This document shows, one piece after another, positions 10,646 to 56,486 of a stretch of DNA of 64,000 nucleotides. Location of the stretch: assembly GCA_964581035.1 (NCBI GenBank), contig CAZOLO010000001.1, forward strand, positions 7,190 to 71,189, in the 5' to 3' direction. Position numbers and translations under genes: made by a program. The notes beneath the pieces are model-generated. The model saw only the letters and a list, made by a program, of their open reading frames with translations, made no database searches and was not told where the DNA came from. This DNA comes from an uncultured Candidatus Saccharibacteria bacterium (GTDB lineage Bacteria; Patescibacteriota; Minisyncoccia; Phycocordibacterales; CSBR16-119). Numbering within the stretch: the first letter of the stretch is position 1; every line of letters begins with the position of its first letter.

Positions 10646-10649
10646 ATCC

Positions 10650-10961: not shown

Positions 10962-10997
10962 TCTAGTTTAATAGAATGATATTATATAAGAATTAGT

Positions 10998-12749
10998 ATG
11001 TATATTAATGATGAACAGTTAACAAAATATTTAATAGATAAAGATCTTATAAAAGAAAAAGATCTATCTTTATCTATTGAAAATGCTGCAAAGCACAATG
11101 TTCCTCTAATAGAGGCCTTTGTTCATGCTGGGATTTTTTCAGAAGAAAAAATCAGAGAAATTGTTGCTGAGATAAAAGGGGTTTCTTTTATTGATTTGTC
11201 TGAGATTAAAATAGAGCAGACGACCCTACAAAGAATACCTGAGTCTATTGCAAAAAAACACAACATAATTGCCTTCAAAGAAGAGGGGGGTGTTCTTAGT
11301 GTTGCGACCCTTGATATAGATAATTTGCCAATCATAGACTCAATTAGAAAATCAACAGGTCTTAAGATAGTTGTTTATGTTACAAACGCTACTTCTATGC
11401 AATCAGCGTTGGTTCAGTATAGAAGAAGTTTGAATATAGAGTTTGACGACATTATTAAAAAACAGGTATCAACCCTTAACTTGAAAGAGGGGGTTGATGA
11501 GAGTGATCTGTCTCCAGCTGAATTAAAAAAGATGGCTGAAGATCTTCCGATTATTAAGATAGTGGACACATTGATCTCACATGCAATCCTGCAGAATGCA
11601 TCAGATGTACACATAGAGCCAGAGGAAAATTCTCTTATTATAAGATTTAGAGTGGATGGAATCTTGCATGACGCCATGTCTCTACCAAAACAGATTACCC
11701 CAGGAGTTATTGTAAGAATAAAAGTTTTGGCTAATTTGAGATTAGATGAGAAGAGGCTTCCACAAGATGGAAGATTTAAAACCGTTTTCAATAGTCAGGA
11801 TGTTTCTTTTCGTGTATCAATACTACCAACATATTTTGGAGAAAAGGTTGTTATTCGTATTTTGAGGGAGAGTGCTCATGGGTTTAGTTTGGAGGCTATT
11901 GGTTTACACGGAGAAGGCCTAGAGCATGTTCATGAGGCAATGAGTCAGAAAACTGGTTTGATATTGGTATCTGGTCCAACTGGATCGGGTAAGACTACGA
12001 CCTTGTACACAATGTTAGACATTTTGAATACTACAGATGTTAATATTTCAACTGTAGAGGATCCAATTGAATATCAAGTTGATAGAATTAATCAAACTCA
12101 AGTTCGTTCAGATATTGGGTTAACATTTGCAGCTGGACTTAGGTCTCTGCTTCGTCAGGACCCAGACATACTTATGGTTGGTGAAATTAGAGATAAAGAG
12201 ACAGTCTCCTTAGCTGTTAATGCTGCTTTGACTGGTCACTTGGTTCTCTCTACCATCCACACAAACTCTGCGGCGGGGGTTATACCTAGGATGATTGACA
12301 TGGGAATTGAAACATTTCTGATCACATCAACTATTAAGACAATATCTGCTCAAAGGCTAGTTAGGGTACTTTGTGATTCAAAAGAAAAATATCACCTTTC
12401 GGATGAGGAAAAATCTAAACTTGAAAAGGTTGTTGATCTAGATAAAGTTTTGTCCTTTTTGAAAAAAGAAAAAATAGTAAAAGCTAAAGATACATGGAAG
12501 ACAATATATTTTTACAAAGCAGTTTCAACACCGGAGTGTGAAAGTGGGTATTCTGGTCGTATTGGTATTCATGAGGTCTTGCACTTAGATGAACCTATTA
12601 AAAAGCTGATCACTAGTGGAGCCACAGAGTCTGACATAGAAGAGATGGCTGTAAAGGGTGGTATGCTTACTATGATAGAAGACGGTATATTTAAAGCTGT
12701 CCAAGGAATGACTACAACAGAGGAGGTTTTAAGAGTTGTTTCAGATTAA
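10998..12749 (+). CDS. pilB: type IV pilus assembly ATPase PilB (GspE family)
   Basis: Walker A VSGPTGSGKTTTLYTML, Asp and His boxes, N-terminal GspII-like domain. Confidence 0.85.
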   Translation: MYINDEQLTKYLIDKDLIKEKDLSLSIENAAKHNVPLIEAFVHAGIFSEEKIREIVAEIKGVSFIDLSEIKIEQTTLQRIPESIAKKHNIIAFKEEGGVLSVATLDIDNLPIIDSIRKSTGLKIVVYVTNATSMQSALVQYRRSLNIEFDDIIKKQVSTLNLKEGVDESDLSPAELKKMAEDLPIIKIVDTLISHAILQNASDVHIEPEENSLIIRFRVDGILHDAMSLPKQITPGVIVRIKVLANLRLDEKRLPQDGRFKTVFNSQDVSFRVSILPTYFGEKVVIRILRESAHGFSLEAIGLHGEGLEHVHEAMSQKTGLILVSGPTGSGKTTTLYTMLDILNTTDVNISTVEDPIEYQVDRINQTQVRSDIGLTFAAGLRSLLRQDPDILMVGEIRDKETVSLAVNAALTGHLVLSTIHTNSAAGVIPRMIDMGIETFLITSTIKTISAQRLVRVLCDSKEKYHLSDEEKSKLEKVVDLDKVLSFLKKEKIVKAKDTWKTIYFYKAVSTPECESGYSGRIGIHEVLHLDEPIKKLITSGATESDIEEMAVKGGMLTMIEDGIFKAVQGMTTTEEVLRVVSD

Positions 12750-12752
12750 AAT

Positions 12753-13973
12753 ATGAAATTTCATTACAAAGCACAATCAAAAATAGGTGTCGTAATAGAG
12801 GACACTATCGAAGCTGAAAGCAAAGAAGCTGTCATAGCAAAGATTCGTGAAAACGGAGCAACTCCTGTGTTTGTTGAAGAAAAAGGGAATAAATCTCTTA
12901 ATATATCTATACCATTTATTGATAATTTGATAGGTGGTATAAATCTGCAAGATAAAGTTATTTTTGCCAAAAATCTTGCAAGAATGCTTAATGCGGGCCT
13001 ATCAACCTCAAGAGCTTTAAGAGTTCTTAAGAAGCAAACTACAAAAGAGTCTTTTAGGGTTGTCCTTGATCATCTGATCGCTGACATAAATAATGGAGAA
13101 TCATTAAGTGATGGTCTAGCTAAGTACCCAAAAGTATTCTCTCCTATGTTTATAGCGATGGTCCATGCTGGAGAAGAGTCAGGTAATATTGTGGGTAATC
13201 TACTAGAGATATCAGCCCAACTAGACAAAACATCAAAGCTTAGAAAAAAAATTAAAGGGGCAATGATTTATCCTGGAGTTATTCTAAGTGCTATGGTGAT
13301 AATAGGTGTATTGATGTTTATCTTTGTTGTTCCAACACTTCTTGCAACTTTTAAAAGTCTAGACATGGAGCTTCCAGCGAGCACTCAACTGATTATATTC
13401 CTTAGTGACAGTATTCAGGCACACACATTTCTTTTCTTAGTTTCAATAGTTGGTTTTTTTGCGGGCCTTATTACAATATTCCGATTGAAATCAATGGAAA
13501 AATACATTGATTTCATAGTTTTAAAAATACCCGTAACTGGAACTATAGCTATAGAAATGAATACTGCGATAGCAACAAGAACCCTTTCTTCTTTACTAGA
13601 ATCTGGTCTTTCTATAAGTCGAGCTCTTACTATCACAAAAGAAGTTCTTCAAAATACTCATTATAAAAAATCTTTAGAAGAAGGTATAAAAAGCATTGAA
13701 AAAGGAGGTCAACTATCCAAAATTTTCGAAGAAAGAAAAGATCTGTATCCCGTCATGATGGGTGAGATGGTCGAAGTTGGAGAAGAGACCGGTAAGCTGG
13801 TAGATATGCTAAAAGATGTTGCTGATTTTTATGAGTATGAAGTGGATAGTAAGACAAAAAATCTGTCGACAATTATAGAACCAGTTCTGATGCTTCTAAT
13901 TGGCTCTGCGGTAGGGTTCTTTGCCGTTTCGATAATGTCACCTATGTATTCTGTTCTTGAGGGTATTTCTTAA
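12753..13973 (+). CDS. pilC: type IV pilus platform protein PilC (GspF family)
   Basis: Two T2SS-F repeats, polytopic, follows pilB. Confidence 0.8.
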   Translation: MKFHYKAQSKIGVVIEDTIEAESKEAVIAKIRENGATPVFVEEKGNKSLNISIPFIDNLIGGINLQDKVIFAKNLARMLNAGLSTSRALRVLKKQTTKESFRVVLDHLIADINNGESLSDGLAKYPKVFSPMFIAMVHAGEESGNIVGNLLEISAQLDKTSKLRKKIKGAMIYPGVILSAMVIIGVLMFIFVVPTLLATFKSLDMELPASTQLIIFLSDSIQAHTFLFLVSIVGFFAGLITIFRLKSMEKYIDFIVLKIPVTGTIAIEMNTAIATRTLSSLLESGLSISRALTITKEVLQNTHYKKSLEEGIKSIEKGGQLSKIFEERKDLYPVMMGEMVEVGEETGKLVDMLKDVADFYEYEVDSKTKNLSTIIEPVLMLLIGSAVGFFAVSIMSPMYSVLEGIS

Positions 13974-13982
13974 TTTATAATT

Positions 13983-15776
13983 ATGTTTTTTATATCACAT
14001 GGCGAGATAAATAAATTCAAGGCTGGATTTAGCCTTATGGAGATGGTGGTGGCTATAGCCATTTTTTCTGTTCTTTCTATTTCTATATATCAAGGATATG
14101 CTCAAATATTTAAAACAACAAATTTTCTTAAAACAAAAACAGTTGCTACAAATCTAGCTAATGAACAAATAGAAATAATAAGAAACCTCCCTTATGACAA
14201 TGTAGGTACAATCGGAGGTATACCTTCTGGTGTTGTAGACCCTTCTCAGGAGATTACTAGGGAAGGTATAGATTTTGTCGTATTAACCACTATTAGAAAT
14301 ATCGATCTTCCATTTGATGGGACACTAGGTGGATCCCCAGATGATCTTTCTCCTGCGGATAATAAGCTTGTTGAAATAGAAATTCAATGCGCTTTGTGTC
14401 AGAATTTTTCGAACTTAGTATTTAACACAAATGTTGCTCCTCAAAGCTTAGAGAGTCTTTCTACAAATGGGGCATTGAGAATAAATGTTTTTGATGCAAA
14501 TGGAGAAGATATCTCTGGGGCTAATGTCTCAATTGTTAATAGTGGTATTTCTCCTAATATAGACATAGACGATGTTACTGGTAACAATGGAATACTTACC
14601 ATTGTGGACGCACCTCCATCCTTTGAATCTTATGAGCTACTAGTTACAAAAGGAGGCTATTCAATGGATCAAACTTATATCTCAGACATTAGTAACCCAA
14701 ACCCCATTAAACCTCATGTAACAGTGAGCCAGGGCCAGATTACTGATGTTAGTTTTATTATAGATGAAACAAGTACGATGAATATCTCTAGTGTTACTGA
14801 TACTTGCCAAGCAGTTTCGGCTTTTGATTTTGATCTTGTGAGTAGTAAGTTAATTGGAACAAACCCTGATGTTCTGAAATATGACAGTAATCATTCTACA
14901 AATGGAAGTGGTCTTCTTTCATTGAGTGATATGGAGTGGGGAACATACACCGTAAATACAACAGATTCAAGCTATGACGTTGCTGGGTTCAATCCCTTTA
15001 ATCCACTAACTATAACTCCGGGAGTAGATCAAGATTTAAAGATTACTTTATTCCCGAAAGATTCCCCTACAACTTTGTTTACCATAAAGGCGCAAGGTAC
15101 AGGAGATCCAATTTCTAATGCTGTGGTTAGTCTACAAAAAACAGGGTTTAATAAAACATTTCTTTCTGGTCAATCAGCAAAAACACAAACTGATTGGTCG
15201 GGTGGTCAAGGTCAAGTAAACTACTCAGATCCAACTGTGTATTCATCAGATGATGGAGGCATTAATGTTAACAATCCTATTGGTTCGATTCTTCTTTTTG
15301 AAGACATAGATGGATATGTCTCATCAGGAGAGTTGATTTCATCTACTTTTGATCTAGGTCCAGGAGTTACTTATCATGATTTGTCTTGGTCTGGGGACAT
15401 ACCAATTTCAACAGACATTCAAGTTCAGATAGCTACAACAAGCTCTGGTACCCCTACAGATTTCATTGGTCCAGATGGAACATCAAGTACATTTTTCACG
15501 TCAATTCCAACAGATATTCCAGCTATTTCAGATGGAGATAGATACTTTAGATATAAAGTATCTTTATCAACTTCAAATCCTTTGTTCACACCAACCTTTG
15601 ATAATTTAGAATTTAATTTTTCTGGTAACTGTGTTGCTCCGGGTCAAATCGCTTTTCAAGGATTATCTAATGGAACATATACTTTAACGGTAAACGCTGA
15701 TGGTTATCAAGAATTTAGTCAGGATATTGATTTAAATAATGCTTGGCAGGAGGTGTTAGTAGAGATGGATGAATAA
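13983..15776 (+). CDS. large prepilin-type protein (597 aa) with class III signal peptide
   Basis: KAG|FSLMEMVVAIAIFSVL prepilin cleavage/methylation motif; long Ser/Thr-rich C-terminal region. Confidence 0.65.
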   Translation: MFFISHGEINKFKAGFSLMEMVVAIAIFSVLSISIYQGYAQIFKTTNFLKTKTVATNLANEQIEIIRNLPYDNVGTIGGIPSGVVDPSQEITREGIDFVVLTTIRNIDLPFDGTLGGSPDDLSPADNKLVEIEIQCALCQNFSNLVFNTNVAPQSLESLSTNGALRINVFDANGEDISGANVSIVNSGISPNIDIDDVTGNNGILTIVDAPPSFESYELLVTKGGYSMDQTYISDISNPNPIKPHVTVSQGQITDVSFIIDETSTMNISSVTDTCQAVSAFDFDLVSSKLIGTNPDVLKYDSNHSTNGSGLLSLSDMEWGTYTVNTTDSSYDVAGFNPFNPLTITPGVDQDLKITLFPKDSPTTLFTIKAQGTGDPISNAVVSLQKTGFNKTFLSGQSAKTQTDWSGGQGQVNYSDPTVYSSDDGGINVNNPIGSILLFEDIDGYVSSGELISSTFDLGPGVTYHDLSWSGDIPISTDIQVQIATTSSGTPTDFIGPDGTSSTFFTSIPTDIPAISDGDRYFRYKVSLSTSNPLFTPTFDNLEFNFSGNCVAPGQIAFQGLSNGTYTLTVNADGYQEFSQDIDLNNAWQEVLVEMDE

Positions 15777-15778
15777 CT

Positions 15779-16393
15779 ATGTTTAATAATACTAAAAATA
15801 CAAAAGGGTTTACCTTAACAGAGATACTTGTTACTTTGGGTATTTTTAGCGTATTAGCTGTTGGCGCAACAAGTCTTCTTCGTGACTCATTTATTTTTAA
15901 GGGAATAGCTCAAACTGGATTAAATTCTATAGATGAGGGTAGAAAGATACTTAGGCCACTTGTTGGTGAAGTAAGAAGCGCTTCTCAGTCTCACAATGGA
16001 GCATATGTTATAGAAAATGCATCAGCTGAAACTTTTATATTTTATAGCGACATAGATAATGATGATTTGATTGAAAGAGTTAGATATTTCTTAGATGAAG
16101 ACACCCTTAAAAAAGGGGTAACAGAACCAAGTGGCAGCCCTCTATCTTATGATTTAAATAACGAAGAGATATCTTGGGTTATTCAAGATGTTGCAAATGG
16201 CGCTAGCCCAGTCTTTGAATATTTTGACACCAATTATGACGGAACTACAGACCCACTGGTTCAGCCTGTTTCTTCTGGAGATGTTCGATTGGTAAAGATA
16301 ACTATTATTATTGACCATGATCCAAACAGGCCGCCAGAAGCTGTAGAGCTTTCTACTCAGATGACCATTCGTAATCTAAAAGATAACTTATGA
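15779..16393 (+). CDS. prepilin-type minor pilin
   Basis: KG|FTLTEILVTLGIFSVLAV motif. Confidence 0.65.
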   Translation: MFNNTKNTKGFTLTEILVTLGIFSVLAVGATSLLRDSFIFKGIAQTGLNSIDEGRKILRPLVGEVRSASQSHNGAYVIENASAETFIFYSDIDNDDLIERVRYFLDEDTLKKGVTEPSGSPLSYDLNNEEISWVIQDVANGASPVFEYFDTNYDGTTDPLVQPVSSGDVRLVKITIIIDHDPNRPPEAVELSTQMTIRNLKDNL

Positions 16394-17826
16394 TTAGATC
16401 TAATAAAAAAGGTTATATAATTTTAACTCTTGTGCTTTTGATAAGCGTATTTGTTCCTCTTATGATTGTTTTTGTAAACTGGTCTGTTACAAGTCTTCAT
16501 GTGGTAGAAAGAAATTTACAAAGGGAGATATCCTTTCACATAGCTGAGGCTGGAATTGACTATTATAGGTGGCACCTGGCTCATGATCCAGAGGATTTTC
16601 AGGATGGCACAGGTGTTGCAGGCCCATATGTTCATGATTTTTCTGATAAGAACGGAACAATTATTGGAAGTTTTTCGCTAGATATTACACCTCCAGAAAT
16701 TGGCTCAACTCTTGTGGCGATTGAATCAACTGGTTCAACTCTGGCTCAGCCAAACATAACAAGGTCTATACGAGCGCAGCTGGCTGTTCCGTCACTGGCT
16801 ACTTTTGCTGTAGCAGCGAACAGCGCAATGAGATTTGGCGAGGGAACAGAGGTTTATGGTCCTATACATTCAAATGGTGGTATTCGTTTTGACGGCCTGG
16901 CTCACAATATTGTTACCAGTGCTAAAGAGACTTATACAGATACAGATGGTGACGCTTGTACAGGTAACTCCTGGGGAGTTCACACCTGTCTTTCTCCTGA
17001 TGATCCTTCTCCAACACTTGAGCCATCAGCTAGACCAGATGTTTTTGAGGCTGGAAGAGAGTATCCTGTACCTCAAGTTGATTTTACCGGTCTAACAAAC
17101 GACCTTTCTAATATTAAAAGTGAGGCTCAAGCAAGCGGTGAGTATTTTGGAGATTCCGGCAAGTCTGGATATAGAATTCTTTTGAAGACAGATGACACAT
17201 TTGATATATATAAAGTTAACAGCCTGGTTTCTGCACCTAGTGGGTGTTACTCTTCACAGGCTGACTGGGGGACATGGAGTGTAAACTCAGAAACATTTTT
17301 AGGTAATTATTCAAATCCGAGCAATGGATTAATTTTTGTTGAAGACGATCTCTGGGTTGAAGGTCAGATAGATGGGGCAAAACTTACAATTGCAGCTGGA
17401 GCTTTTCCTGACAATGCAAATACCAGAAAAAGCATAACGGTCAACAACGATCTTTTGTATACAAACTACGATGGTCAAGACGTTCTAGCTCTTATTTCTC
17501 AAAAGAATATAAATGCTGGATTGGTAAGTGCTGACACATATAGAATAGATGCAGCCTTGATTGCTCAAAACGGTAGGGTTGGTAGATTCTATTACGCACC
17601 ACCATCTGGATGGTCAAACAGATGTTCGCCTTACCATTCTAGAGATGAGATAACTCTATACGGTATGCTGGCTACAAATAATAGGTATGGTTTTGCTTAT
17701 ACAAACAATACTGGATATGTTCTTAGAAATATTATTTATGATGGGAACCTTCTTTATGGCCCACCACCAAACTTTCCTCTAACTTCAGACTCGTATCAGA
17801 TTCTTTCTTGGGAAGAGATAGAATAA
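16390..17826 (+). CDS. pilus-associated protein (PilX-like N-terminal anchor)
   Basis: N-terminal hydrophobic anchor after a basic stretch; overlapping start with the upstream pilin gene. Confidence 0.4.
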   Translation: MIRSNKKGYIILTLVLLISVFVPLMIVFVNWSVTSLHVVERNLQREISFHIAEAGIDYYRWHLAHDPEDFQDGTGVAGPYVHDFSDKNGTIIGSFSLDITPPEIGSTLVAIESTGSTLAQPNITRSIRAQLAVPSLATFAVAANSAMRFGEGTEVYGPIHSNGGIRFDGLAHNIVTSAKETYTDTDGDACTGNSWGVHTCLSPDDPSPTLEPSARPDVFEAGREYPVPQVDFTGLTNDLSNIKSEAQASGEYFGDSGKSGYRILLKTDDTFDIYKVNSLVSAPSGCYSSQADWGTWSVNSETFLGNYSNPSNGLIFVEDDLWVEGQIDGAKLTIAAGAFPDNANTRKSITVNNDLLYTNYDGQDVLALISQKNINAGLVSADTYRIDAALIAQNGRVGRFYYAPPSGWSNRCSPYHSRDEITLYGMLATNNRYGFAYTNNTGYVLRNIIYDGNLLYGPPPNFPLTSDSYQILSWEEIE

Positions 17827-41039: not shown

Positions 41040-42716
41040 ATGATAAAAGCATTATTGCAAAAAGAGATTAGCAGAGTAGTGTCTGATATTGGTCTTGAAA
41101 GTGTTCCGGTTGAGCTTTCTCACCCAGCTGATTTTTCTCATGGAGACTATGCTGCAAACACCGCCATGATTCTGGCAAAGAAAGCTGGTAAGAACCCTAT
41201 TGAAGTTGCCGGAGAAATTGTTAATGCTTTAAAAGAAAAAAAGATTGATTTTGTTTCAAAAATAGAAATAGCTGGTCCTGGTTTTATTAATTTTACACTT
41301 ACTCCTGAGTTTTTTGTAAAAGAGACAAAGGAGATTGTCTCAGTGGGGGAGAAGTATGGAGAATCAGAGATACACATAGGAAAGAAGATTCTTGTAGAGC
41401 ACTCAAGTCCCAACTTATTTAAACCTTTTCATATAGGTCATGTTATGAACAATGCTATTGGAGAGTCTATTTCTCGATTGGCAAAGTTCTCTGGAGCTGA
41501 TACAACTGTAATATCATTTCCTTCTGATATTTCTCTTGGTGTAGCTAAAGCGATATTTATTTTACTTGAAGAAGAGGGGGAGAGTTTCATTCCAACAGAT
41601 GTTGCTGTTCTTGGTGATGCATATGTTAAGGGGACAAAGCGATATGAAGAAGATGAATCAGTGCATTTAAGAATAAAGGAGATTGCTGACAATCTATATA
41701 GCAGGAGAGACTCTCCAGAACTAAGAATTTTTGATATATGTAAAAAATTTAATATTGAATACTTTGAAAAAGTTTTAGATAGACTGGGTACAAAAATTGA
41801 TGCATATATATATGAGAGTGAGGCGGGAATAGCTGGTGTTAATCTGGTGGGAGTAAACAAAGATATTTTTACTCAGAGCGACGGAGCTATTGTGTATATC
41901 CCAAGTGAAGATGATAAACACTTAAATACTGCGGTATTTATAAATAGCCAGGGAAATCCAACCTACGAAGCAAAAGACTTAGGTCTTTTGAAATTAAAGT
42001 TTGAGAAATATTCACCAGACTTATCTATCTTCATGACAGACAATCAGCAGATTTCTCACTTTAATGTTGTGTTAGATGCTGCAAAAAAAATAAACCCAGA
42101 GTGGTCAGAAAAAAGCATTCACCGATATCATGGAAGAATGAGTTTTCAAGGAAATAAGATGTCTTCTAGGCTTGGAGGAGTGCCTCTTGCTTCTGACCTT
42201 CTAGATGGTATTCATGAGGAAGTAAATGAGAAGAATAAAGAGGCCGATGAAAAACTGAAAGATCAGATTGCTATTGCCGCCCTGAAATTTACAATTCTAA
42301 AATCTCAAGCAGGTAAAAATATAAACTTTGATCCAGAGACTGATCTATCTTTTGAAGGGGATACTGGGCCATATATTCAATATACTATTGCTAGATGTAA
42401 TTCTGTTTTAGGAAAAGCTAATACCGAAGGTATTAAAGAGTCATTTGAAAAATCAGGAGAGGTGACAGACCTAGAAAGACTACTGTATAGATTCCCGGAG
42501 GTGGTTGAGTCATCTGCGAAAGAATGGGCGCCCCATCACTTGGTGAATTATGGGCTAGAACTTGCTAGAGCTTTCAATAGTTTCTATGGAAACACAAAAT
42601 TAATAGATAAAGATAATCTAGAAACTGGATATAATTTATCGCTAGTAAAGGCAACATCACAGGTTTTGAAAAACACACTTCAAATTCTAGGCATAGAAAG
42701 CCCAGAAAAGATGTAA
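41040..42716 (+). CDS. argS: arginyl-tRNA synthetase
   Basis: PFHIGH class I motif in an ArgS-like context; C-terminal DALR-type domain ending ...SPEKM as in ArgS. Confidence 0.8.
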   Translation: MIKALLQKEISRVVSDIGLESVPVELSHPADFSHGDYAANTAMILAKKAGKNPIEVAGEIVNALKEKKIDFVSKIEIAGPGFINFTLTPEFFVKETKEIVSVGEKYGESEIHIGKKILVEHSSPNLFKPFHIGHVMNNAIGESISRLAKFSGADTTVISFPSDISLGVAKAIFILLEEEGESFIPTDVAVLGDAYVKGTKRYEEDESVHLRIKEIADNLYSRRDSPELRIFDICKKFNIEYFEKVLDRLGTKIDAYIYESEAGIAGVNLVGVNKDIFTQSDGAIVYIPSEDDKHLNTAVFINSQGNPTYEAKDLGLLKLKFEKYSPDLSIFMTDNQQISHFNVVLDAAKKINPEWSEKSIHRYHGRMSFQGNKMSSRLGGVPLASDLLDGIHEEVNEKNKEADEKLKDQIAIAALKFTILKSQAGKNINFDPETDLSFEGDTGPYIQYTIARCNSVLGKANTEGIKESFEKSGEVTDLERLLYRFPEVVESSAKEWAPHHLVNYGLELARAFNSFYGNTKLIDKDNLETGYNLSLVKATSQVLKNTLQILGIESPEKM

Positions 42717-42760: not shown

Positions 42761-43303
42761 TTGATAGAGTCATTTAAAAGAGAACTTATGGAGAAAGAGA
42801 TAATTGATTGTCTAGATTTTGGAGATATATTTGAAATGAATCCACACGGTGATCTGGATACCACAGATAATATTGAATCATTGTTTGCCCATCTTACAGA
42901 AGAGGGTAAATATGATTTACCTCCCAGAACCAAGATCAAGGTCTGGGGGTCAAACGTTAATTGGTCTAGTAAAGAAAATCCTTTTAGGTATAGTTTTGAA
43001 ATGGTTAGAACCCTGGGTCATCTCAAGAGATACTATCTTTCATGGAGCCATATTATTGAGGAATTCAATATTGAGAAGTATTATGATGGACAAGAATGGA
43101 AGATGGCACTTCTTGAGAAAGAAGGGGAAAGACGGACAGCTTTTGGTTTAATGAGAATGATTGGTGACTATAACCGCGCAACTCAATTGGAAGAAGATCA
43201 CAAAAAAGATCTCAAGGAAGCTTACGGTGATAAGAAAAAAATTGAGAAGATTGAGAAAGATTTTAAGAATCGCACTAGTAATCAAATGATGATTATTGGA
43301 TAA
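42761..43303 (+). CDS. hypothetical protein
   Basis: 180-aa ORF. Confidence 0.4.
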   Translation: MIESFKRELMEKEIIDCLDFGDIFEMNPHGDLDTTDNIESLFAHLTEEGKYDLPPRTKIKVWGSNVNWSSKENPFRYSFEMVRTLGHLKRYYLSWSHIIEEFNIEKYYDGQEWKMALLEKEGERRTAFGLMRMIGDYNRATQLEEDHKKDLKEAYGDKKKIEKIEKDFKNRTSNQMMIIG

Positions 43304-43358
43304 AGCCCTTACGGGCTTTTTTAGTTTTTATATTCAGAATAGGTCTATATTGAAGGTG

Positions 43359-43387
43359 TTGACACATAAAAATCAAGATGCTATCCT
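43359..43387 (+). promoter_or_regulatory. sigma70-like promoter TTGACA-N17-TATCCT
   Basis: Upstream of the ORF at 43415. Confidence 0.4.
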
Positions 43388-43414
43388 ATCGACCTAACTA
43401 AATTTGTACATTAC

Positions 43415-43930
43415 ATGAAGAATTTTAAAGTAGAAGACCTTTTTGGCAATAATCCAGAAGGCAGCCTTTGGGCAGAGTTATTAGCTGTCACAGACAATGA
43501 GGTAGCCAAGATGACCCTTGGTTCACCTGCAGTAGCTGATCACGAAACAGTGGTTGGTGACCTTTCTCTGATTGAGAAAAAACTCATTTTCCTTAACAGG
43601 AAAAAGAAAGATTGGATCAATGCATTGGTTAAAAAATCAGAAAAAGAAAATCTTGATGAGAAAGGTCTTGAGGCTCTCGTAGAAGAGACTCATCCTGTGC
43701 GTCATGATGTTGACGTTCTTGACGAGATAGTATGGAATTTGATCAAGATGAGAATTCCCGCTGCGGCAAGAACTTGCTCAGGTGTCGGATTTCGTGAAGG
43801 CGGGGTGATTGTGACCGGAGTTAAAAGCCAAGAGGAAATGCTCCTTCAAGAGTTTGGGGGAATGCTTTCCGCGATAATTTTCGGGGAAAGAAAAATGAGA
43901 ACAGAGCCAAAAGCGAAAGCTGAAGCTTAA
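43415..43930 (+). CDS. hypothetical protein
   Basis: 171-aa ORF. Confidence 0.4.
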   Translation: MKNFKVEDLFGNNPEGSLWAELLAVTDNEVAKMTLGSPAVADHETVVGDLSLIEKKLIFLNRKKKDWINALVKKSEKENLDEKGLEALVEETHPVRHDVDVLDEIVWNLIKMRIPAAARTCSGVGFREGGVIVTGVKSQEEMLLQEFGGMLSAIIFGERKMRTEPKAKAEA

Positions 43931-43952
43931 CAATACAGGTTTGGTGTGAGTA

Positions 43953-43986
43953 CGAAGGGTGACCGTTGGTCACCCTTTTTTATTTG
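43953..43986 (+). terminator. rho-independent terminator
   Basis: gggtgaccgttggtcaccc + T7. Confidence 0.65.
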
Positions 43987-44001
43987 AACAATTAAATAAA
44001 A

Positions 44002-44027
44002 AAAGAGCCGCTCAATTGAGCGGCTCT
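44002..44027 (-). terminator. terminator for the minus-strand gene
   Basis: agagccgctcaattgagcggctct with an A-run on plus (T-run on minus). Confidence 0.55.
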
Positions 44028-44037
44028 TCATCTTCAT

Positions 44038-44358
44038 TTATTTATTAAGAAACTCAGCTAGACCTGCAAAAGGGGAATCAACATCACCCTCCTTTTTGTC
44101 TGTGTAGGCTACGCGAAATGTTTTGGTTTCATTAAACAGATCTCCAAATACAGCTGTGTCAGCATGTTCAATAACGGGTTTTTCTGGCCACTCTCTCTCC
44201 ATCCATTCTATCTCATTTTTGGCATTCTCTCTTGATGCAACGAAGTGACCTTCTGGAGTGGCGTAGTAGCCGGCACTATTGGGTTTAGGGTTTTCGCGCT
44301 TGGATACTTTGAAAACAAAGTAGTTCCCATTTGCTGTTTGAATCATATTTAGTCTCAT
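44038..44358 (-). CDS. hypothetical protein
   Basis: 106-aa ORF. Confidence 0.4.
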   Translation of the reverse strand: MRLNMIQTANGNYFVFKVSKRENPKPNSAGYYATPEGHFVASRENAKNEIEWMEREWPEKPVIEHADTAVFGDLFNETKTFRVAYTDKKEGDVDSPFAGLAEFLNK

Positions 44359-44686: not shown

Positions 44687-47600
44687 ATGAGGAATAACGA
44701 AAAAGAAAAATCAGAAGTAGCGCTTCGAGAAGAAGCTGTCTTAAAATTTTGGAAAGAAAATGATATTTTCAAAAAAACGTTAAATAAGCCATCAACAGAA
44801 GGTGAGTTTGTTTTCTATGATGGGCCTCCATATGCAACAGGTCTGCCACACTATGGACACCTTCTTCCTGGAACAATCAAAGACGTAATTCCTAGATACA
44901 AAACAATGAAAGGCTTTTCTGTTCCTCGTCGTTGGGGTTGGGATTGTCATGGATTACCAATTGAAAACTTGATTCAAAAAGAATTGGATCTTCCAACAAA
45001 ACATGATGTTGCGGAATATGGAATAGGAAAGTTCAACGATGCTGCTAGAGCTTCTGTTCTTCGTTATGAAGCTTCTTGGAAGGAATATATTCCAAGAGTG
45101 GGTAGGTTTGTTGATATGGATTATCCATATATGACTATGACACCAGACTTCATGGAAAGTATTTGGTGGGTATTTAAAACACTTCACGATAAAGGTTTGG
45201 TTTATAAAGGGTACAAATCTATGTATGTTTCTCCTCCACTAGAGACCGTACTTTCTAATCAAGAAGTAAACATGGGAGGGTATAAAGATGTCACAGACAT
45301 GTCTGTGACTGCGAAGTTTACATTGAAGGATGGAGGTCATGCTGGTGCGCACATGCTTGCCTGGACAACAACACCATGGACACTTCCAGGAAACGTACTC
45401 TTGGCTGTAGGGTCTGATATTAAATATAATCTAGTTTCTTTGGATGGAGAGAAGTATGTAGTCGGATCGGAATTACTAGAAAAAGTTTTTGAAGGTAAGG
45501 AGTATTCAGTAGAGGGAGAATTAAAAGGGTCCGACTTGGTTGGTTCTACATATGAACCAGTATTTCCATATTATTCTAATCATGAAAATGCATTCCGAGT
45601 AGTGCCTGCTGGTTTTGTAACAACAGAAGACGGAACAGGAATCGTGCACATTGCTCCAGGGTTTGGTCAGGATGATCTAGAGCTTGGACAAAAAGAAAAT
45701 GTAGAACCAATTCAGCATGTCCAGATGGATGGGCACTTTGTGCCAGAGATAAAAAAGGCTTTGGTAGATGAAGGATATGACGTTGCAGATTGGGCCGTTA
45801 GAAATGTTAAAGATCACATGCATGTAGATGTGGAGATTGTGAAGTACTTGGCGCATCATGGAAAGCTTTTTGAAAAGAAAAAATATATTCACAGCTATCC
45901 AATGTGTTGGCGAACAGATTGTCCTTTGATTAATTACGCTACCGATAGTTGGTTTATAGATGTTCAGAAAATAAAAGAGAATTTAATAAAAAATAACAAA
46001 GAAACAAACTGGGTTCCTCAGCATGTTCGTGATGGAAGATTTGGAAAGTGGCTCGAAGATGTTCGTGACTGGTCAGTTTCAAGAAGTAGATTCTGGGGGA
46101 CACCTATTCCTATTTGGCAAAATGAAAATACAAAAGAATATAAAGTTCTTGGGTCTATAGAAGACTTGAGGAAATACTCAGGAGATGCGATCACTAGGGT
46201 TGTATTTGTTAGACATGGAGAGAGTATTAAGAATGTTGAAAATAGAATGAGTAGTGCAATTGATAAGCATCCTCTAACAGAAAAAGGGGATAAGGTTGCT
46301 CATGAGGCTGGAGAAAAATTGAAAGATTTTAATGTTGATGTGATCTACTCATCTCCAGTTCTTAGAGCTAAGCAAACTGCAGAAATAATTGGGGGGTCTC
46401 TAAACATGGACGTTGTCTTTGATGAAGACATTATAGAGATCTCGAGCGGAGAATGGGAGGAAAAAACAATAAATGAAATAAGTGATTTTGATGAGCGTGC
46501 GGATTATTTGAACATGTCTATTGAGGACAGGTATAAAGCAAAGAGAGGAAAGACTGGAGAGTCTTGGGAGGATGTAGAAAAAAGACTGAAACGATTCTTA
46601 GATAGAGTTCAAAAAGAACATCAGGGAAAAACAATTGTTGTGGTTTCTCATATGGGGACAAATACTATGGGTATGAAGATATTAAAAAGTTTAACCAATC
46701 ATCAGGTTGATGCTATCTATACAAACCCTAGATTTACTAGCCATGCTACACCTGTTTCTATTCATACATATTCTGAGACGGGATTAGAGGTGGATCTACA
46801 TCGTCCATTTATAGACGATATTAAGCTTGTAGATGAGGACGGCTCAAACCTAAAGAGGGTAGAAGATGTATTCGATGTGTGGTTTGACTCAGGGTCTATG
46901 CCATATGCTCAGCAACACTTTATGGGAGGCAAAGATATGCCAGATAGATTCCCGGCTGACTTTATTGCAGAAGGGCAGGATCAGACTCGCGGATGGTTCT
47001 ACGTACTTTCTGTTTTAGGTACAGCTTTGTTTGACAAGTTTCCATTTAAGGAGGTTATTGTAAACGGAATGGTCTTAGCAGAAGATGGGAAGAAAATGTC
47101 AAAGAGATTAAAAAACTATCCAGAAATTGATGTCGTTTTGAATAAATATGGAGCTGATGCTCTTAGGTTATTCTTAATGGCTTCTCCGGCTGTTCATGCA
47201 GAAGATGTTAACTTTGTAGAAAAAACAGTTAGCGAGGTTCAAAGCAAAGTCCTAGGTAGGCTTCGAAATGTGGTTGAGTTCTACAAGATGTATGAAAAAG
47301 GAGAAGATGCAAAAAATGATAGTAAAAATATTTTAGACCAATGGATCTTATCTCGACTATCTGAAACTCAAACAGAGATGGAAAAAGGTCTTGAGGGATA
47401 TGAAATAGATAAAGGAGCAAGACCTATATTTGATTTTGTGGATGATTTGTCTACATGGTATGTACGAAGAAGTAGAGATAGGTTTAAAGGAGAAGGGGAA
47501 GATAAAAAATCTTCAATAGAGACAACCCGATTTGTGCTTAGAGAATTCTCAAAATTAATTGCTCCATATATTCCATTTGTAGCAGAAGAAGTTTATAAAG

Positions 47601-48091
47601 ATGTTGGAGGTGAACTTGAGTCAGTTCATTTAGAATCTTGGCCAGAATTAGTAATAAAAGGAAAAGGTGATGTTCTTGAGAACATGACAACAGTAAGAGA
47701 GGTTGTTAGGCTTGGGCTAGAAGCTAGGCAGAAAGCTGGTGTAAAAGTTAGACAACCTTTGCAGAAAATTCAAATAACAGAAAAGTTAGACCAAGAATAT
47801 CTAGATGTTATTGCGGATGAGCTAAATGTTAAAGAAGTATATATTGGATCAGATCTTGTACTTGATACAGTTATTACTCCAGAACTAGAAAAGGAAGGGC
47901 AGGCGAGAGAACTTATTCGAGAAATACAAAAAATGAGAAAAGAGGCTGGTCTGAACCCGGAAGACAAAATTAAGTTGAATATTCCAGAAGAATCAAAAGA
48001 TGTATATGAAGATTTCCAAGAGGAAATAAAAAACATAACCAATGTGATAGATGTTTCATTTGGTGGTGAAATTGTAATAGAAAAATTGTAA
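44687..48091 (+). CDS. ileS: isoleucyl-tRNA synthetase (type 2) with inserted histidine-phosphatase-like domain
   Basis: FYDGPPYATGLPHYGHLL (HYGH), WSVSRSRFWGTPIPIW, KMSKRLKNYP; at 1134 aa, residues ~505-690 (VVFVRHGES...VVVSHMGT) resemble the phosphoglycerate-mutase/His_Phos_1 family. Confidence 0.85.
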   Translation: MRNNEKEKSEVALREEAVLKFWKENDIFKKTLNKPSTEGEFVFYDGPPYATGLPHYGHLLPGTIKDVIPRYKTMKGFSVPRRWGWDCHGLPIENLIQKELDLPTKHDVAEYGIGKFNDAARASVLRYEASWKEYIPRVGRFVDMDYPYMTMTPDFMESIWWVFKTLHDKGLVYKGYKSMYVSPPLETVLSNQEVNMGGYKDVTDMSVTAKFTLKDGGHAGAHMLAWTTTPWTLPGNVLLAVGSDIKYNLVSLDGEKYVVGSELLEKVFEGKEYSVEGELKGSDLVGSTYEPVFPYYSNHENAFRVVPAGFVTTEDGTGIVHIAPGFGQDDLELGQKENVEPIQHVQMDGHFVPEIKKALVDEGYDVADWAVRNVKDHMHVDVEIVKYLAHHGKLFEKKKYIHSYPMCWRTDCPLINYATDSWFIDVQKIKENLIKNNKETNWVPQHVRDGRFGKWLEDVRDWSVSRSRFWGTPIPIWQNENTKEYKVLGSIEDLRKYSGDAITRVVFVRHGESIKNVENRMSSAIDKHPLTEKGDKVAHEAGEKLKDFNVDVIYSSPVLRAKQTAEIIGGSLNMDVVFDEDIIEISSGEWEEKTINEISDFDERADYLNMSIEDRYKAKRGKTGESWEDVEKRLKRFLDRVQKEHQGKTIVVVSHMGTNTMGMKILKSLTNHQVDAIYTNPRFTSHATPVSIHTYSETGLEVDLHRPFIDDIKLVDEDGSNLKRVEDVFDVWFDSGSMPYAQQHFMGGKDMPDRFPADFIAEGQDQTRGWFYVLSVLGTALFDKFPFKEVIVNGMVLAEDGKKMSKRLKNYPEIDVVLNKYGADALRLFLMASPAVHAEDVNFVEKTVSEVQSKVLGRLRNVVEFYKMYEKGEDAKNDSKNILDQWILSRLSETQTEMEKGLEGYEIDKGARPIFDFVDDLSTWYVRRSRDRFKGEGEDKKSSIETTRFVLREFSKLIAPYIPFVAEEVYKDVGGELESVHLESWPELVIKGKGDVLENMTTVREVVRLGLEARQKAGVKVRQPLQKIQITEKLDQEYLDVIADELNVKEVYIGSDLVLDTVITPELEKEGQARELIREIQKMRKEAGLNPEDKIKLNIPEESKDVYEDFQEEIKNITNVIDVSFGGEIVIEKL

Positions 48092-51963: not shown

Positions 51964-53346
51964 ATGGAACAAGATCAAGATTTAATGCAAAAAATAGTTA
52001 GCTTAGCTAAAAGGCGAGGTTTTATATTTCCTGGTTCTGAAATTTATGGAGGATTATCTGGTACATATGATTATGGACCTCTTGGGTCACAGTTAAAGAA
52101 AAATATAAAAGACTCTTGGTGGAAGAAGTTTGTGGAGTCAAGAGAAGATACTTATGGACTTGATGCAGCAATACTGATGAATCAAAAGGTTTGGGAAGCG
52201 ACTGGTCATGTTGATGAATTTCATGACATGCTTGTTGAAGATATCAAAACAAACAAAAGATATCGTGCGGATCACTTACTTGAAGATGCGGGGGTGTCTG
52301 ATGCTGATGGTATGTCTGCAGAGCAGATGTCTGAAAAAATTCAGGAGTTAGATTTGAAATCACCCGAAGGAAACCCTTTAAGTGAAGTTAAGCAATTCAA
52401 CATGATGCTTCAAACAAAAGTTGGGGTTACAGACGATGGGGGAACGACTAGTTATTTAAGACCAGAGACAGCTCAAGGTATTTTTGTAAATTACAAAAAC
52501 ATACTCGACACCATGAGCCCTAAAATTCCTTTTGGTATAGCTCAAATAGGTAAGGCTTTTAGGAATGAGATTACTCCAAAAGATTTTACTTTTAGACAGA
52601 GAGAGTTTGAACAGATGGAAATAGAGTATTTTATTAAAGAATCAGACTGGGAAAAACAATTTACTTACTGGGTCGAAGAGCAACAAGAGTGGTTTACTGG
52701 TATTGGTCTTGATGAGACCAAGCTCCATGAGCACGAGCATCCAAAAGAAGCATTGAGTCACTATTCTAAGAGAACAATGGATTGGAACTTTGATTTTCCT
52801 TTTGGAAGAAGTGAGCTATGCGGTCTTGCTTACAGAACTGACTTTGACCTATCAAGGCACGCTGAGGCTTCTAAACAAAAACTTCAGTACACAGATCCTC
52901 ACACTGGAGAGACTTTTGTACCCCATGTCATAGAGCCTTCATTTGGTCTAGATAGAACAATTTTGGCTTTACTGGTATCAGCTTATAGAGAGGAAAATCC
53001 AGGAAAAGAAGATGAAAGAGTCTATTTAGCCCTGAAGCCTTCTGTTGCGCCTGTTCTTTGTGCGGTTTCACCGTTGGTGAAAAATAAAGAAGATATAGTG
53101 GACAGAGCAAGAATGATTTTTGGAAAACTGAAAGCGGAATTCGGAAGAGTAATGTGGGATGATAACGGAAATGTAGGGAAGAGATATCGAAGACAAGACG
53201 AGATTGGAACACCATTTTGTATTGTAATTGATTACGAGACCATGGATGGAGAGGGTGTAACTATTCGAAATAGAGATACTGGAGATCAAGACAGGATAAA
53301 AGAAGAAGATCTTGTTGAGTACTTAAGAGAAAAATTCGAAGACTAG
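51964..53346 (+). CDS. glyQS: glycyl-tRNA synthetase (dimeric class II type)
   Basis: RRGFIFPGSEIYGGLSGTYDYGPLG and class II motifs. Confidence 0.85.
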   Translation: MEQDQDLMQKIVSLAKRRGFIFPGSEIYGGLSGTYDYGPLGSQLKKNIKDSWWKKFVESREDTYGLDAAILMNQKVWEATGHVDEFHDMLVEDIKTNKRYRADHLLEDAGVSDADGMSAEQMSEKIQELDLKSPEGNPLSEVKQFNMMLQTKVGVTDDGGTTSYLRPETAQGIFVNYKNILDTMSPKIPFGIAQIGKAFRNEITPKDFTFRQREFEQMEIEYFIKESDWEKQFTYWVEEQQEWFTGIGLDETKLHEHEHPKEALSHYSKRTMDWNFDFPFGRSELCGLAYRTDFDLSRHAEASKQKLQYTDPHTGETFVPHVIEPSFGLDRTILALLVSAYREENPGKEDERVYLALKPSVAPVLCAVSPLVKNKEDIVDRARMIFGKLKAEFGRVMWDDNGNVGKRYRRQDEIGTPFCIVIDYETMDGEGVTIRNRDTGDQDRIKEEDLVEYLREKFED

Positions 53347-55019: not shown

Positions 55020-56486
55020 ATGTCAAAAAAACCATTTTATATAACAACAACTCTTCCATACTTAAACGCTAGCCCTCATATAGGTTTTGCGCTTGAGATT
55101 ATTCGAGCAGATGCTATTGCTCGATATAAAGATCTTATGGGCCATGAGGTGTTTTTTAATACCGGAACAGATGAGCATGGCCAGAAGATATACCAAGCTG
55201 CTCTAGATCAAGGAAAGGATCCTCAAGCTTATGTAGATGAAATTGCAAAAGAGTTCCAGGGACTTAAGGAGAAGCTTGGATTGTATAACGACATACATTT
55301 TGTCAGAACAACAGATGTTCACCACAAAAGTTCAGCTCAACACTTCTGGAAGATATGTGATGAGGCTGGATATATCTACAAGAAGAAATACAAAGGGCTT
55401 TACTGTGTTGGTTGTGAATTGTTTAAAACTGAAAAGGAGCTTATAAATGAAGAGTGTCCAGTTCACCCCGGTAAGAAGCCAGATGAGATCGAGGAGGAAA
55501 ATTATTTCTTCAAGTTTTCATCTTTCACAGATGATCTAATTGCTTTGTATAACGCAAGAGAAGATTTTGTAAAACCAGACTTTAGATATAACGAAATAAA
55601 AAACTTTGTAAAAGGTGGGTTGGAAGACTTTTCTATTTCACGAGTAAAAGATCGAATGCCATGGGGTGTTCCAGTTCCTGGTGATGAAGACCAAGTAATG
55701 TATGTTTGGTTTGACGCACTCACAAACTATATTTCTACTTTAGGTTGGCCAGAAGATTCTAAGACTTTTGAGAAATTCTGGGTAAATGGAACAACTCTTC
55801 AAATTGCTGGAAAGGATAATCTTCGTCAGCAGTCTGCTATGTGGCAAGCCATGCTTATGGCGGCAAACCTTCCTCCAACAGACAATATTATAATCAATGG
55901 ATTCATTGTTTCTGATGGTCAAAAAATGAGCAAGTCTCTTGGAAATGTAATAAACCCATATGACTTAGTAGATGAGTTTGGGGTAGATGCACTTAGATAT
56001 TTTATACTTAGGCATGTTGGACTGAGTGAAGACTCTGATGTAACTGTTGAGAAATTTAAAGACGCTTACAATGCAAATCTAGCAAACGGAATAGGGAACT
56101 TAGTAAGTCGGATTCTAAAAATGGTAACTAGCTACAGTGTAATTTTTGAATTCCCAGACAGAGAAGATTCCCTTGAAGAAATTCAAAAGGAAGAAAGTTT
56201 CCAGGAATACAGAGAAGCTTTGGAAAGTTACGACTTTAATAAAGCTATGGATTTCATCTGGAAAGAAGTGGGGGACATGGATGAATTCATTGCTAAAGAG
56301 CAACCATTTAAGAAGATAAAAGAAGATGAAGATACCGCTAAAGAGGATTTAGCAAAACTGCTTCTAAATCTTTGGTATGTTTCAATTCTTCTTGAGCCAC
56401 TATTACCGAACACAGCAGAAAAAATTCAAGAACATCTCGCAGAGCTAAAAATGCCAGAAGAGCCACTGTTTGTTCGAAAAGATTAA
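55020..56486 (+). CDS. metG: methionyl-tRNA synthetase (short form)
   Basis: KMSKSLGNVINP; Zn knuckle CVGC...ECPVH; DFSISR..WGVPVP..YVWFDALTNYIS; HIGH motif reads HIGF. Confidence 0.8.
   Translation: MSKKPFYITTTLPYLNASPHIGFALEIIRADAIARYKDLMGHEVFFNTGTDEHGQKIYQAALDQGKDPQAYVDEIAKEFQGLKEKLGLYNDIHFVRTTDVHHKSSAQHFWKICDEAGYIYKKKYKGLYCVGCELFKTEKELINEECPVHPGKKPDEIEEENYFFKFSSFTDDLIALYNAREDFVKPDFRYNEIKNFVKGGLEDFSISRVKDRMPWGVPVPGDEDQVMYVWFDALTNYISTLGWPEDSKTFEKFWVNGTTLQIAGKDNLRQQSAMWQAMLMAANLPPTDNIIINGFIVSDGQKMSKSLGNVINPYDLVDEFGVDALRYFILRHVGLSEDSDVTVEKFKDAYNANLANGIGNLVSRILKMVTSYSVIFEFPDREDSLEEIQKEESFQEYREALESYDFNKAMDFIWKEVGDMDEFIAKEQPFKKIKEDEDTAKEDLAKLLLNLWYVSILLEPLLPNTAEKIQEHLAELKMPEEPLFVRKD

Follow-up and report, generated by a model that had tools for sequence, protein, structure and literature searches.

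A histidine phosphatase domain nested in the type-2 isoleucyl-tRNA synthetase of Patescibacteria

We analyzed a 64,000-nucleotide stretch of contig CAZOLO010000001.1 (assembly GCA_964581035.1, positions 7,190 to 71,189; hereafter the window), whose ileS gene encodes an isoleucyl-tRNA synthetase (IleRS) carrying a branch-1 histidine phosphatase nested in its connective-peptide region. Both enzymes belong to one protein of 1134 amino acids (aa), encoded by a single open reading frame (ORF) with zero stops and zero frameshifts. A preliminary description made from the sequence had proposed an in-frame insertion in one polypeptide, and the continuous ORF, in which every peptide string quoted there is present, bears this out. 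The best reading of the protein is a bifunctional enzyme that combines an IleRS with a PhoE-like phosphomonoesterase, and we predict with good confidence that the latter is active, because a native single-chain type-2 IleRS (IleRS2) is found together with a complete, selection-preserved set of branch-1 phosphatase residues. The IleRS part would charge (and edit) tRNA-Ile in the normal way; independently, the phosphatase would hydrolyse a phosphomonoester via a phospho-H510 intermediate, with E584 as the proton donor. This architecture is not restricted to the window genome and is widespread, with variants, in Patescibacteria.

The host enzyme and its nested domain

Profile searches identified IleRS sequence on either side of the insert, as the preliminary description had stated. 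In Pfam, tRNA-synt_1 (PF00133) matches both flanks, followed by Anticodon_1 at aa 884-1028 (E=2e-31) and DUF5915 at 1058-1125, and in NCBIfam the whole protein scores 854.3 bits with the ileS equivalog TIGR00392 (cutoff 621.4). The proposed parallel to eukaryote-type IleRS was also upheld: the protein matches IleRS2 8c8u with E=4e-207 vs E=2e-102 for IleRS1 8c9e, and its C-terminal organisation is of type 2 (DUF5915), lacking the zinc-binding domain of IleRS1. The Foldseek ranking agrees, since the full-length AlphaFold model (mean predicted local distance difference test (pLDDT) 88.5, predicted template modelling score (pTM) 0.81) has 8c8u as its top match (TMt 0.79), followed by the yeast and Thermus enzymes. 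With Priestia megaterium IleRS2 (PmIleRS2; 8C8U/8C8V) and yeast cytoplasmic IleRS (8WND) the window protein is collinear over its full length (E=4e-207, Foldseek TMt 0.72-0.79) and shares the HYGH and KMSKR signatures, the editing motifs and the type-2 C-terminal DUF5915 domains; unlike PmIleRS2, it has ~200 aa in place of the 5-residue loop 479-485. In a 77-sequence alignment, the editing motifs WTTTPWTLPGN (226-236) and GTGIVHIAPGFG (316-327) are invariant, like many other class Ia residues. Scores with the mupirocin-resistance models MupA and MupB were 704 and 666 bits, below the cutoff of 1900. By all tests applied, the host is a native type-2 (archaeal/eukaryote-like) IleRS of a Patescibacteria bacterium (candidate phyla radiation, Paceibacteria-like) with its synthetic, editing and anticodon-binding motifs intact, and the IleRS part looks fully functional.

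The boundaries of the insert were fixed by a phmmer alignment with 8c8u, in which residues 13-499 of the window protein correspond to chain residues 12-479 and residues 701-1072 to chain residues 485-870. Since the alignment breaks at 499/701, the insert comprises approximately aa 500-700. The preliminary description had placed a domain of ~185 aa at 46199-46756 (aa 505-690), which was right as to location and too small as to size. The insert begins with DAITRV and finishes at SETGL|EVDLH. Its linkers are short: the first phosphatase strand starts 2-3 residues past G499, and the last strand ends ~5 residues ahead of the point where IleRS resumes. At the same point, insert-free relatives have a loop of only 4-8 residues (e.g. 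...ELEKLSG-KKVD-DLHRPYID...), as does IleRS2. The region is not a known IleRS-specific insertion. In 8c8u and many relatives, the insertion site is flanked by the two halves of a zinc knuckle, with CxxC before it and CxC/CxxC after it. The knuckle cysteines of the window protein are replaced (QNEN ... VDEDGS; 46103-46180 and 46787-46870, aa 473-498 and 701-728), and they are retained in some insert-bearing relatives. The HUP catalytic core of PmIleRS2 consists of residues 40-168 and 513-632 (PMC10485003), which puts the insertion point (Pm 479-485) in the connective-peptide region, ~28 residues ahead of the second half of the core. The connective peptides (CP) of IleRS have been named CP core, CP1 (the editing domain), CP2 and CP3 (PMC11685878), and we infer that the insertion hairpin belongs to CP3. 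A surface hairpin of the connective peptide, formed by the loop of the often degenerate zinc knuckle, carries the phosphatase at its tip, and the second Rossmann half begins shortly after it. The earlier view of a domain embedded in the class I catalytic core therefore holds for the insertion (connective-peptide) region of the catalytic domain and not for the core beta-alpha-beta structure itself.

By its profile matches and fold, the insert is a short (~200 aa) phosphatase of the PhoE/iPSP/CobC type without mutase traits, which falls in PF00300 but outside the characterised subfamilies of that family. The hidden Markov model (HMM) scan that returned tRNA-synt_1 also returned His_Phos_1 (PF00300) at aa 505-676 (E=2.1e-39, 135.7 bits vs a gathering threshold of 21.7), covering profile positions 1-168 of 194. 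R509, H510, N516, R560, E584 and H655 pair with R9, H10, N16, R59, E83 and H151 of PhoE, so the catalytic signature that had been described as complete is indeed so. Branch-1 membership is further indicated by the catalytic core and by an alpha/beta fold with a central sheet, in addition to the score above the PF00300 threshold. The closest solved sequences are Geobacillus PhoE (1h2e/1ebb, E=2e-19), Hydrogenobacter phosphoserine phosphatase (4ij5) and CobC. In AlphaFold models, the insert has pLDDT 92-98 within the full-length protein and 95 as an isolated domain. The isolated domain superposes on iPSP1 (4ij5/4ij6) with a template modelling (TM) score of 0.84 and a root-mean-square deviation (rmsd) of 2.0, and on PhoE (1h2e) and the riboflavin-pathway HFP 9mmh with 0.82 each. 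Compared with PhoE (1H2E/1EBB), iPSP1 (4IJ5), CobC alpha-ribazole phosphatase (6NRU, 6E4B) and HFP (9MMH) as a group, the insert has the same fold (TM 0.82-0.84, rmsd 2.0-2.6 Angstrom, ~30% identity), the same R-H-G...N...R...E...H set, a similar length of ~200 aa and the same absence of mutase-type extensions; whereas these enzymes stand free, the window domain is nested in another enzyme with both termini tethered. The earlier label of a PGM/His_Phos_1-like domain is correct for His_Phos_1 and fails for the mutase: the phosphoglycerate mutase (dPGM) models TIGR01258 and NF038349 gave the insert 44.9 vs 81.7 and 115.5 vs 225 bits (40 and 110.1 bits for the full protein). PspA (104.9 vs 350), CobC (95.3 vs 162.9) and SixA (33.9 vs 74.5 bits) also remained below their equivalog cutoffs.

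Conservation was counted in a MAFFT alignment of the window protein and 120 homologues (n=121). R509, H510, N516, S556, R560, E625 and H655 are invariant (121/121), E584, G588 and R633 are found in 120/121, and the glycine of the RHG motif (G511) in 117/121. In distant members, the phosphatase domain is only 22-46% identical, vs ~50-64% for the whole proteins. These counts bear on the possibility that the domain is a non-catalytic module, i.e. an appendage without turnover that is structural, senses phosphate or binds the tRNA 5'-phosphate. Pseudo-enzymes are common among domains appended to synthetases, and the rigid tether and good packing of the domain in the model (pTM 0.81) would suit such a role. 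However, more than 120 sequences, as well as both copies in the tandem forms described below, share the nucleophile, the acid/base and all phosphate-binding residues without variation, which is the pattern of an active enzyme, and substitutions are confined to isolated members. We therefore consider a module without turnover very improbable.

The insert also appears to be as native to the gene as the rest of it. Its GC content, GC at third codon positions (GC3) and codon usage resemble those of the remaining gene (codon cosine 0.893 vs 0.902 +/- 0.024 for blocks drawn at random from this gene), and GC content is continuous over 46000-46900. Against the nearest orthologue with retrievable DNA (L081, 77% identity), a Nei-Gojobori comparison gave the insert a nonsynonymous distance (dN) of 0.187 with saturated synonymous sites (pS 0.78), and the remaining ileS a dN of 0.157, a synonymous distance (dS) of 2.1 and a dN/dS of 0.07; purifying selection acts on the insert and on the synthetase to a comparable degree. 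The gene order ThyA, SHMT, ArgRS, small ORFs, IleRS, RecO, DUF11 protein, GlyRS, AI-2E transporter, MetRS and TatD is common to the window and two related contigs (P0002 and P0004). An artefact, whether an assembly chimera, a frameshifted gene pair or an intein, has a negligible chance of being correct, and nothing was found in its favour: the frame is continuous, composition matches, more than 170 proteins come from independent assemblies, orthologues are syntenic, and no Hint/intein family was matched. A chimera or frameshifted pair was accordingly rejected, including an assembly join of two genes, which is contradicted by homologues from independent assemblies, GTDB loci and conserved synteny. 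An intein, which the preliminary description had likewise discounted, was rejected as the Pfam scan gave no Hint/intein family, and a recent horizontal insertion was rejected on the host-like codon usage and composition. Coordinates of the gene and its parts are collected in Table 1.

Table 1. Coordinates of ileS and its functional parts in the window
Feature	Position	Strand	Basis
ileS (stop codon included), type-2 IleRS with nested histidine phosphatase	44687..48091	+	ORF, Pfam, NCBIfam, 8c8u alignment, AlphaFold, Foldseek
IleRS N-terminal part, aa 1-499: first Rossmann/HUP half, CP1 editing domain, connective peptide to first half of degenerate zinc knuckle	44687..46183	+	8c8u phmmer alignment; tRNA-synt_1 at aa 18-496
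HIGH-type signature H55-Y56-G57-H58 (HYGH)	44849..44860	+	H55, G57, H58 invariant in 77 sequences
Editing-site Thr-rich motif T227-T228-T229-P230-W231, within WTTTPWTLPGN	45365..45379	+	Invariant columns in 77-sequence alignment
Nested branch-1 histidine phosphatase, aa 500-700, linkers of ~5 residues or fewer per side	46184..46786	+	Pfam, alignment boundaries, AlphaFold, fold match
R509-H510-G511, RHG motif; H510 predicted phospho-accepting nucleophile	46211..46219	+	Aligned to PhoE R9-H10
E584, predicted general acid/base (PhoE E83 equivalent)	46436..46438	+	PhoE alignment; 120/121
H655, second catalytic His (SHMG)	46649..46651	+	Aligned to PhoE H151; 121/121
IleRS C-terminal part, aa 701-1134: second zinc-knuckle half (Cys lost), second HUP half, anticodon-binding domain, type-2 C-terminal domains (DUF5915)	46787..48088	+	8c8u alignment; Pfam
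KMSKS-type loop K803-M804-S805-K806-R807 (KMSKR)	47093..47107	+	K803, M804, K806 invariant; S805 conserved in at least 90%

Distribution, insertion sites and other guest domains

Searches of a 5.8-billion-protein collection showed that PF00300 and PF00133 occur together in all of the 120 best homologues (48-100% identity; 1117-1246 aa save one partial sequence of 937 aa), which originate from ENA, JGI, NCBI and Logan assemblies; the named sources include Paceibacterota, Nomurabacteria, Campbellbacteria, Wolfebacteria and Patescibacteria group. A sampled scan of GTDB species, evaluated by alignment at the insertion junction, added at least 23 loci with the fusion, and the same insertion is therefore present in related genomes. 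The titles of these loci name Paceibacteria, Minisyncoccia, Spechtbacterales, Patescibacteria group, Peregrinibacteria, Peribacteria and 'Saccharibacteria', and the same scan contained insert-free Patescibacteria (L044, L047, L050 and L066). A few fusion-bearing sequences have labels from outside Patescibacteria, such as L001 (labelled Gammaproteobacteria) and P0067 (labelled Crocinitomicaceae); given their 41-51% identity to the window protein, they are probably mis-binned or mis-labelled contigs of metagenome-assembled genomes (MAGs).

For a survey of the family, the N-terminal 499 aa were used as the query against a library of 1.84 billion representatives, which makes the ranking independent of the insert, and the 150 best were then scanned with the insert HMM, which detected the domain in roughly half of them. 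Among these 150 nearest 50%-identity cluster representatives, 133 are near full length (≥900 aa); the insert is present in 57 of them, with insert-free ones interleaved. When the IleRS cores of 133 sequences are arranged in a crude neighbour-joining tree, ~23 gains or losses are required, a figure that we use solely to state that the distribution of the insert is patchy, with repeated loss or gain. A free-standing His_Phos gene beside ileS (the 'Rosetta stone' state) was found in none of 80 ileS loci.

Further examination of the homologues revealed the phosphatase at no fewer than four positions in IleRS. Site 1, the insertion point of the window protein, is used by most members. Site 1b lies between DLHKxxVD...ITW and KRIPEVLDCWFESGS (P0166 copy 1 and P0136 copy 2), site 2 between WFESGSMPYAQxHYPF and FPADFIAEGxDQTRGWF (P0139, P0129, P0126, P0166 copy 2, P0185 copy 1, P0188 and P0170), and site 3 past KMSKS, where the anticodon-binding domain begins, between ...TYAxIDGW and LDxWIxSEL (P0155 copy 2, P0185 copy 2 and P0204). 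In insert-free numbering, these positions extend from ~500 to 668, with KMSKS at ~603, i.e. from ~105 residues before it to ~65 after it. Two copies are present in P0136, P0155, P0166, P0185, P0128 and the loci L021:4501-8961 and L022:4531-8946, including Peregrinibacteria/Peribacteria MAGs. The site pairs in two-copy proteins are 1+1b, 1b+2, 1+3 and 2+3, the copies being either tandem or at separate sites, and the full catalytic set is preserved in both copies of all these proteins with one exception, the first copy of P0166 (E625Q, R633Q). P0188 has the isolated substitution E584N. In BLAST comparisons, copies at sites 1b, 2 and 3 scored 86-124 bits against site-1 copies and 62-85 bits against 14 free-standing phosphatases, a small and biased outgroup made up of PhoE, PspA and 12 weak matches from a search with the site-3 domain that did not recover its own parent. 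This difference is suggestive of a single capture, after which the domain was duplicated and moved within the gene.

The phosphatase is not the only guest of this IleRS clade. GNAT domains of the Acetyltransf_3, 1, 7 and 10 families occur alone or with His_Phos: in P0170 and P0188 a GNAT accompanies His_Phos at site 2, in P0191, P0256 and P0228 an Acetyltransf_3-type GNAT is located inside the CP1 region, P0246 has two GNAT-containing regions, and P0220 has up to three, the third lacking a stretch that passes alone. P0204 combines a PF06821 serine hydrolase at site 2 (aa 562-734, 69.6 bits) with its site-3 phosphatase, and P0160 combines a P-loop kinase-like insert at site 2 (aa 737-869; AAA_18 28.9 bits vs a cutoff of 29.4) with a site-1 phosphatase. 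PDB matches of this kinase-like insert (APS, shikimate and Pnkp1 kinases) all had E>0.02, and its Pfam matches AAA_18 and AAA_33 were at or under the cutoff. A different insert of ~290 aa was observed at site 1 of the 1356-aa IleRS of L064:4381-8451, from a MAG labelled Segetibacter sp. (Bacteroidota); its match to PBECR1, a phage Barnase-EndoU-ColicinE5/D-RelE-like nuclease family, is borderline (aa 629-731, 27.4 bits vs a cutoff of 27.6).

NCBIfam contains a model for GNAT-bearing IleRS, NF040702 (ileS_w_GNAT, 'isoleucine--tRNA ligase, N-acetyltransferase domain-containing'). These proteins and the GNAT-bearing P0191, P0256, P0228, P0220 and P0246 share with the window protein the host family and the principle of a nested small-molecule-modifying enzyme; they differ in that the guest is a GNAT and the site is mostly in the CP1/editing region (~aa 300-445) or at site 2. 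With NF040702, the score of the window protein is 302.9 bits (cutoff 1999), and it has no GNAT match.

This assortment of guests raises the possibility of target-attached detoxification, in which the phosphatase, and in relatives the GNATs, serine hydrolase and kinase-like domain, would inactivate IleRS inhibitors or aminoacyl-adenylate mimics at their target. Aminoacyl-nucleotide antibiotics are substrates of RimL/MccE-type GNATs, which acetylate them; mupirocin, for its part, is an ester. The GNATs, the serine hydrolase (PF06821) and the weakly matched P-loop kinase-like domain of the same IleRS clade, along with the existence of the ileS_w_GNAT model, would agree with this idea. However, the known IleRS inhibitors have no phosphomonoester, and histidine phosphatases require a terminal phosphate, which makes adenylate-type diesters and phosphoramidates poor candidates; literature support was not found either. 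Detoxification at the target is thus a most unlikely role for the phosphatase.

Possible roles of the nested phosphatase

The preliminary description suggested that the domain may confer a moonlighting or regulatory activity. We consider it conceivable, at a little below even chances, that the phosphatase acts on something that it meets at the synthetase, such as a nucleotide, a tRNA end or a serine of the KMSKS loop, each in phosphorylated form. Coupling of this kind is favoured because at least four sites are used in one enzyme, all within ~170 residues around KMSKS and with short linkers, and also because two intact copies are kept in some lineages and other modifying enzymes gather in the same host. 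Several observations weigh against it or against the bifunctional reading. All functionally specific NCBIfam models (dPGM_arch, PspA, CobC, SixA and GpmB) are far below their cutoffs, and the conserved phosphatase residues are only those general to the family. The surface of the domain is mildly acidic (median net charge -5, isoelectric point 5.9), which lends no support to general RNA binding. The insert is cleanly absent from close IleRS relatives, and this absence together with the ~23 state changes indicates that IleRS function is independent of it. Finally, the sites may lie close together near KMSKS simply because a single insertion was duplicated locally within the gene, given that the embedded copies are more similar to one another than to the few free-standing outgroups.

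In the main alternative, the domain is a hitch-hiker: a housekeeping small-molecule phosphatase (e.g. for phosphoserine, a sugar phosphate or a nucleotide) that was captured once by ileS in a streamlined lineage and is kept as the sole, co-expressed copy, uncoupled from aminoacylation. This is a realistic possibility to which we give appreciable weight, on the order of a third of the whole. The nearest relatives of the domain in sequence and fold are metabolic or broad-specificity phosphatases, its surface is acidic, the insert is often lost while IleRS stays intact, and at depth the phosphatase domain evolves faster than the IleRS core. Moreover, no second His_Phos gene is present in the window, and the embedded copies look mutually related, such that multiple sites would be explicable by local duplication and loss. 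On the other hand, the domain persists in a single host protein at no fewer than four sites, and some lineages keep two intact copies of it; it was never found as a separate neighbouring gene in the 80 ileS loci, and the accumulation of GNATs and a serine hydrolase in this IleRS clade hints at a host-specific theme.

If the phosphatase is coupled to the synthetase, one form of coupling is suggested by bacterial kinase toxins. HipA phosphorylates S239 of GltX in KLSKR, and HipT phosphorylates S197 of TrpS in KMSKS (PMC6581861); kinase toxins are therefore known to inactivate class I synthetases at the loop around which the inserts cluster. By analogy, the domain could be an eraser or repair module that, in cis or on bound tRNA, strips a kinase-toxin phosphate from S805 or a charging-blocking (pyro)phosphate from the tRNA 3' end. 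In addition to the HipA/HipT precedent at KMSKS-type loops (PMC6581861), the KMSKR loop of the window IleRS has the conserved S805, all four insertion sites lie between ~105 residues before and ~65 after KMSKS, the linkers are short and rigid-looking, and the top fold match is a phosphoserine phosphatase. However, this case is built on inference alone. Neither the window nor the loci yielded an identifiable kinase toxin, the site clustering has a neutral explanation, and the domain resembles small-molecule enzymes rather than the protein phosphatases of its family (PGAM5, Sts and SixA; 33.9 vs 74.5 bits for SixA). PADLOC-DB defence models matched 0 families for the window protein, the insert alone and four variant proteins. 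An eraser is therefore an unlikely role on present evidence.

A broader and likewise speculative proposal, which we rate only marginally higher, is that the nested phosphatase might serve as a built-in antidote beside the synthetic site. By removing phosphate from a HipA/HipT-phosphorylated KMSKS serine or from a (pyro)phosphorylated tRNA 3' end, it would make IleRS self-repairing, and the IleRS2 of Patescibacteria and neighbouring lineages might act as a platform that time and again recruits cis-acting modifiers (phosphatase, GNAT, serine hydrolase, kinase-like and possibly BECR-type nuclease) for the protection or regulation of a translation enzyme that is essential and often attacked.

Relation to known enzymes and genomic surroundings

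Few enzymes are as conserved as aminoacyl-tRNA synthetases. To our knowledge, new catalytic domains in the catalytic region of a synthetase are rare; the only universal case, the editing domain CP1, proved central to translational fidelity. As a hydrolytic domain nested in the Rossmann connective peptide of IleRS, ValRS and LeuRS, CP1 provides a conceptual precedent; it differs from the phosphatase in being universal in the family, unrelated in fold, active on aminoacyl esters and known for its role in proofreading. Branch-1 histidine phosphatases joined covalently to a second enzyme are also known, namely in RNase H/acid phosphatase (PRK07238 type), the Nudix-histidine phosphatase MutT1 and PFK-2/FBPase-2 (in NCBIfam, the C-terminal half of PRK07238 scored 98 bits and MutT1 was a weak match). 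However, these are end-to-end fusions whose partner activities are phosphatase-related, whereas the window domain is nested and its partner is a synthetase without an obvious phosphomonoester substrate.

In the searchable literature, we found no published account of an aminoacyl-tRNA synthetase that contains a nested histidine phosphatase or GNAT, in agreement with the preliminary description, which had not recognised the arrangement as a described one; a 2026 preprint on IleRS domain evolution makes no mention of a phosphatase, an acetyltransferase or Patescibacteria. Relatives bear automated annotations such as 'class I tRNA ligase family protein' and 'isoleucyl-tRNA synthetase/predicted acetyltransferase', which means that the sequences are already in databases and that the architecture appears unanalysed. 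New here are the recurrence of one domain at no fewer than four sites near KMSKS, sometimes in duplicate, the GNAT, serine-hydrolase and kinase-like guests, and the insert-free close relatives. Across a large part of Patescibacteria, IleRS has kept, besides CP1, an unrelated hydrolase whose active site is intact, and both this active site and its repeated repositioning would surprise specialists of these synthetases. If the phosphatase acts on the synthetase, tRNA or their ligands, a new layer of translation regulation, repair or self-defence would be added. If it is a passenger only, it would be a clear case of genome-reduced bacteria packing unrelated enzymes into essential genes, and it would show how permissive the loops of IleRS are.

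Upstream of ileS, Rfam and tRNA scans detected no T-box or other leader, and the sole match was a tRNA-His at 420-494. Four synthetase genes of the window lie within 16 kb, i.e. those for ArgRS (41040-42716), IleRS (44687-48091), GlyRS (51964-53346) and MetRS (55020-56486), in an order kept in two related contigs; ArgRS, GlyRS and MetRS are of normal size and have no extra domains. Three small ORFs between ArgRS and IleRS (42761-44358; 180 and 171 aa on the + strand and 106 aa on the - strand) have no Pfam match, and small unannotated ORFs occupy the equivalent position in the related contigs. The window is otherwise an ordinary chromosomal stretch of low GC content (36.8%), which holds genes for a class I aldolase and RecA, and a type IV pilus cluster at 8420-17826 that encodes PilM, a T2SSE ATPase, a T2SSF platform protein and a pilin-like protein (N-methylation motif, CarboxypepD_reg).

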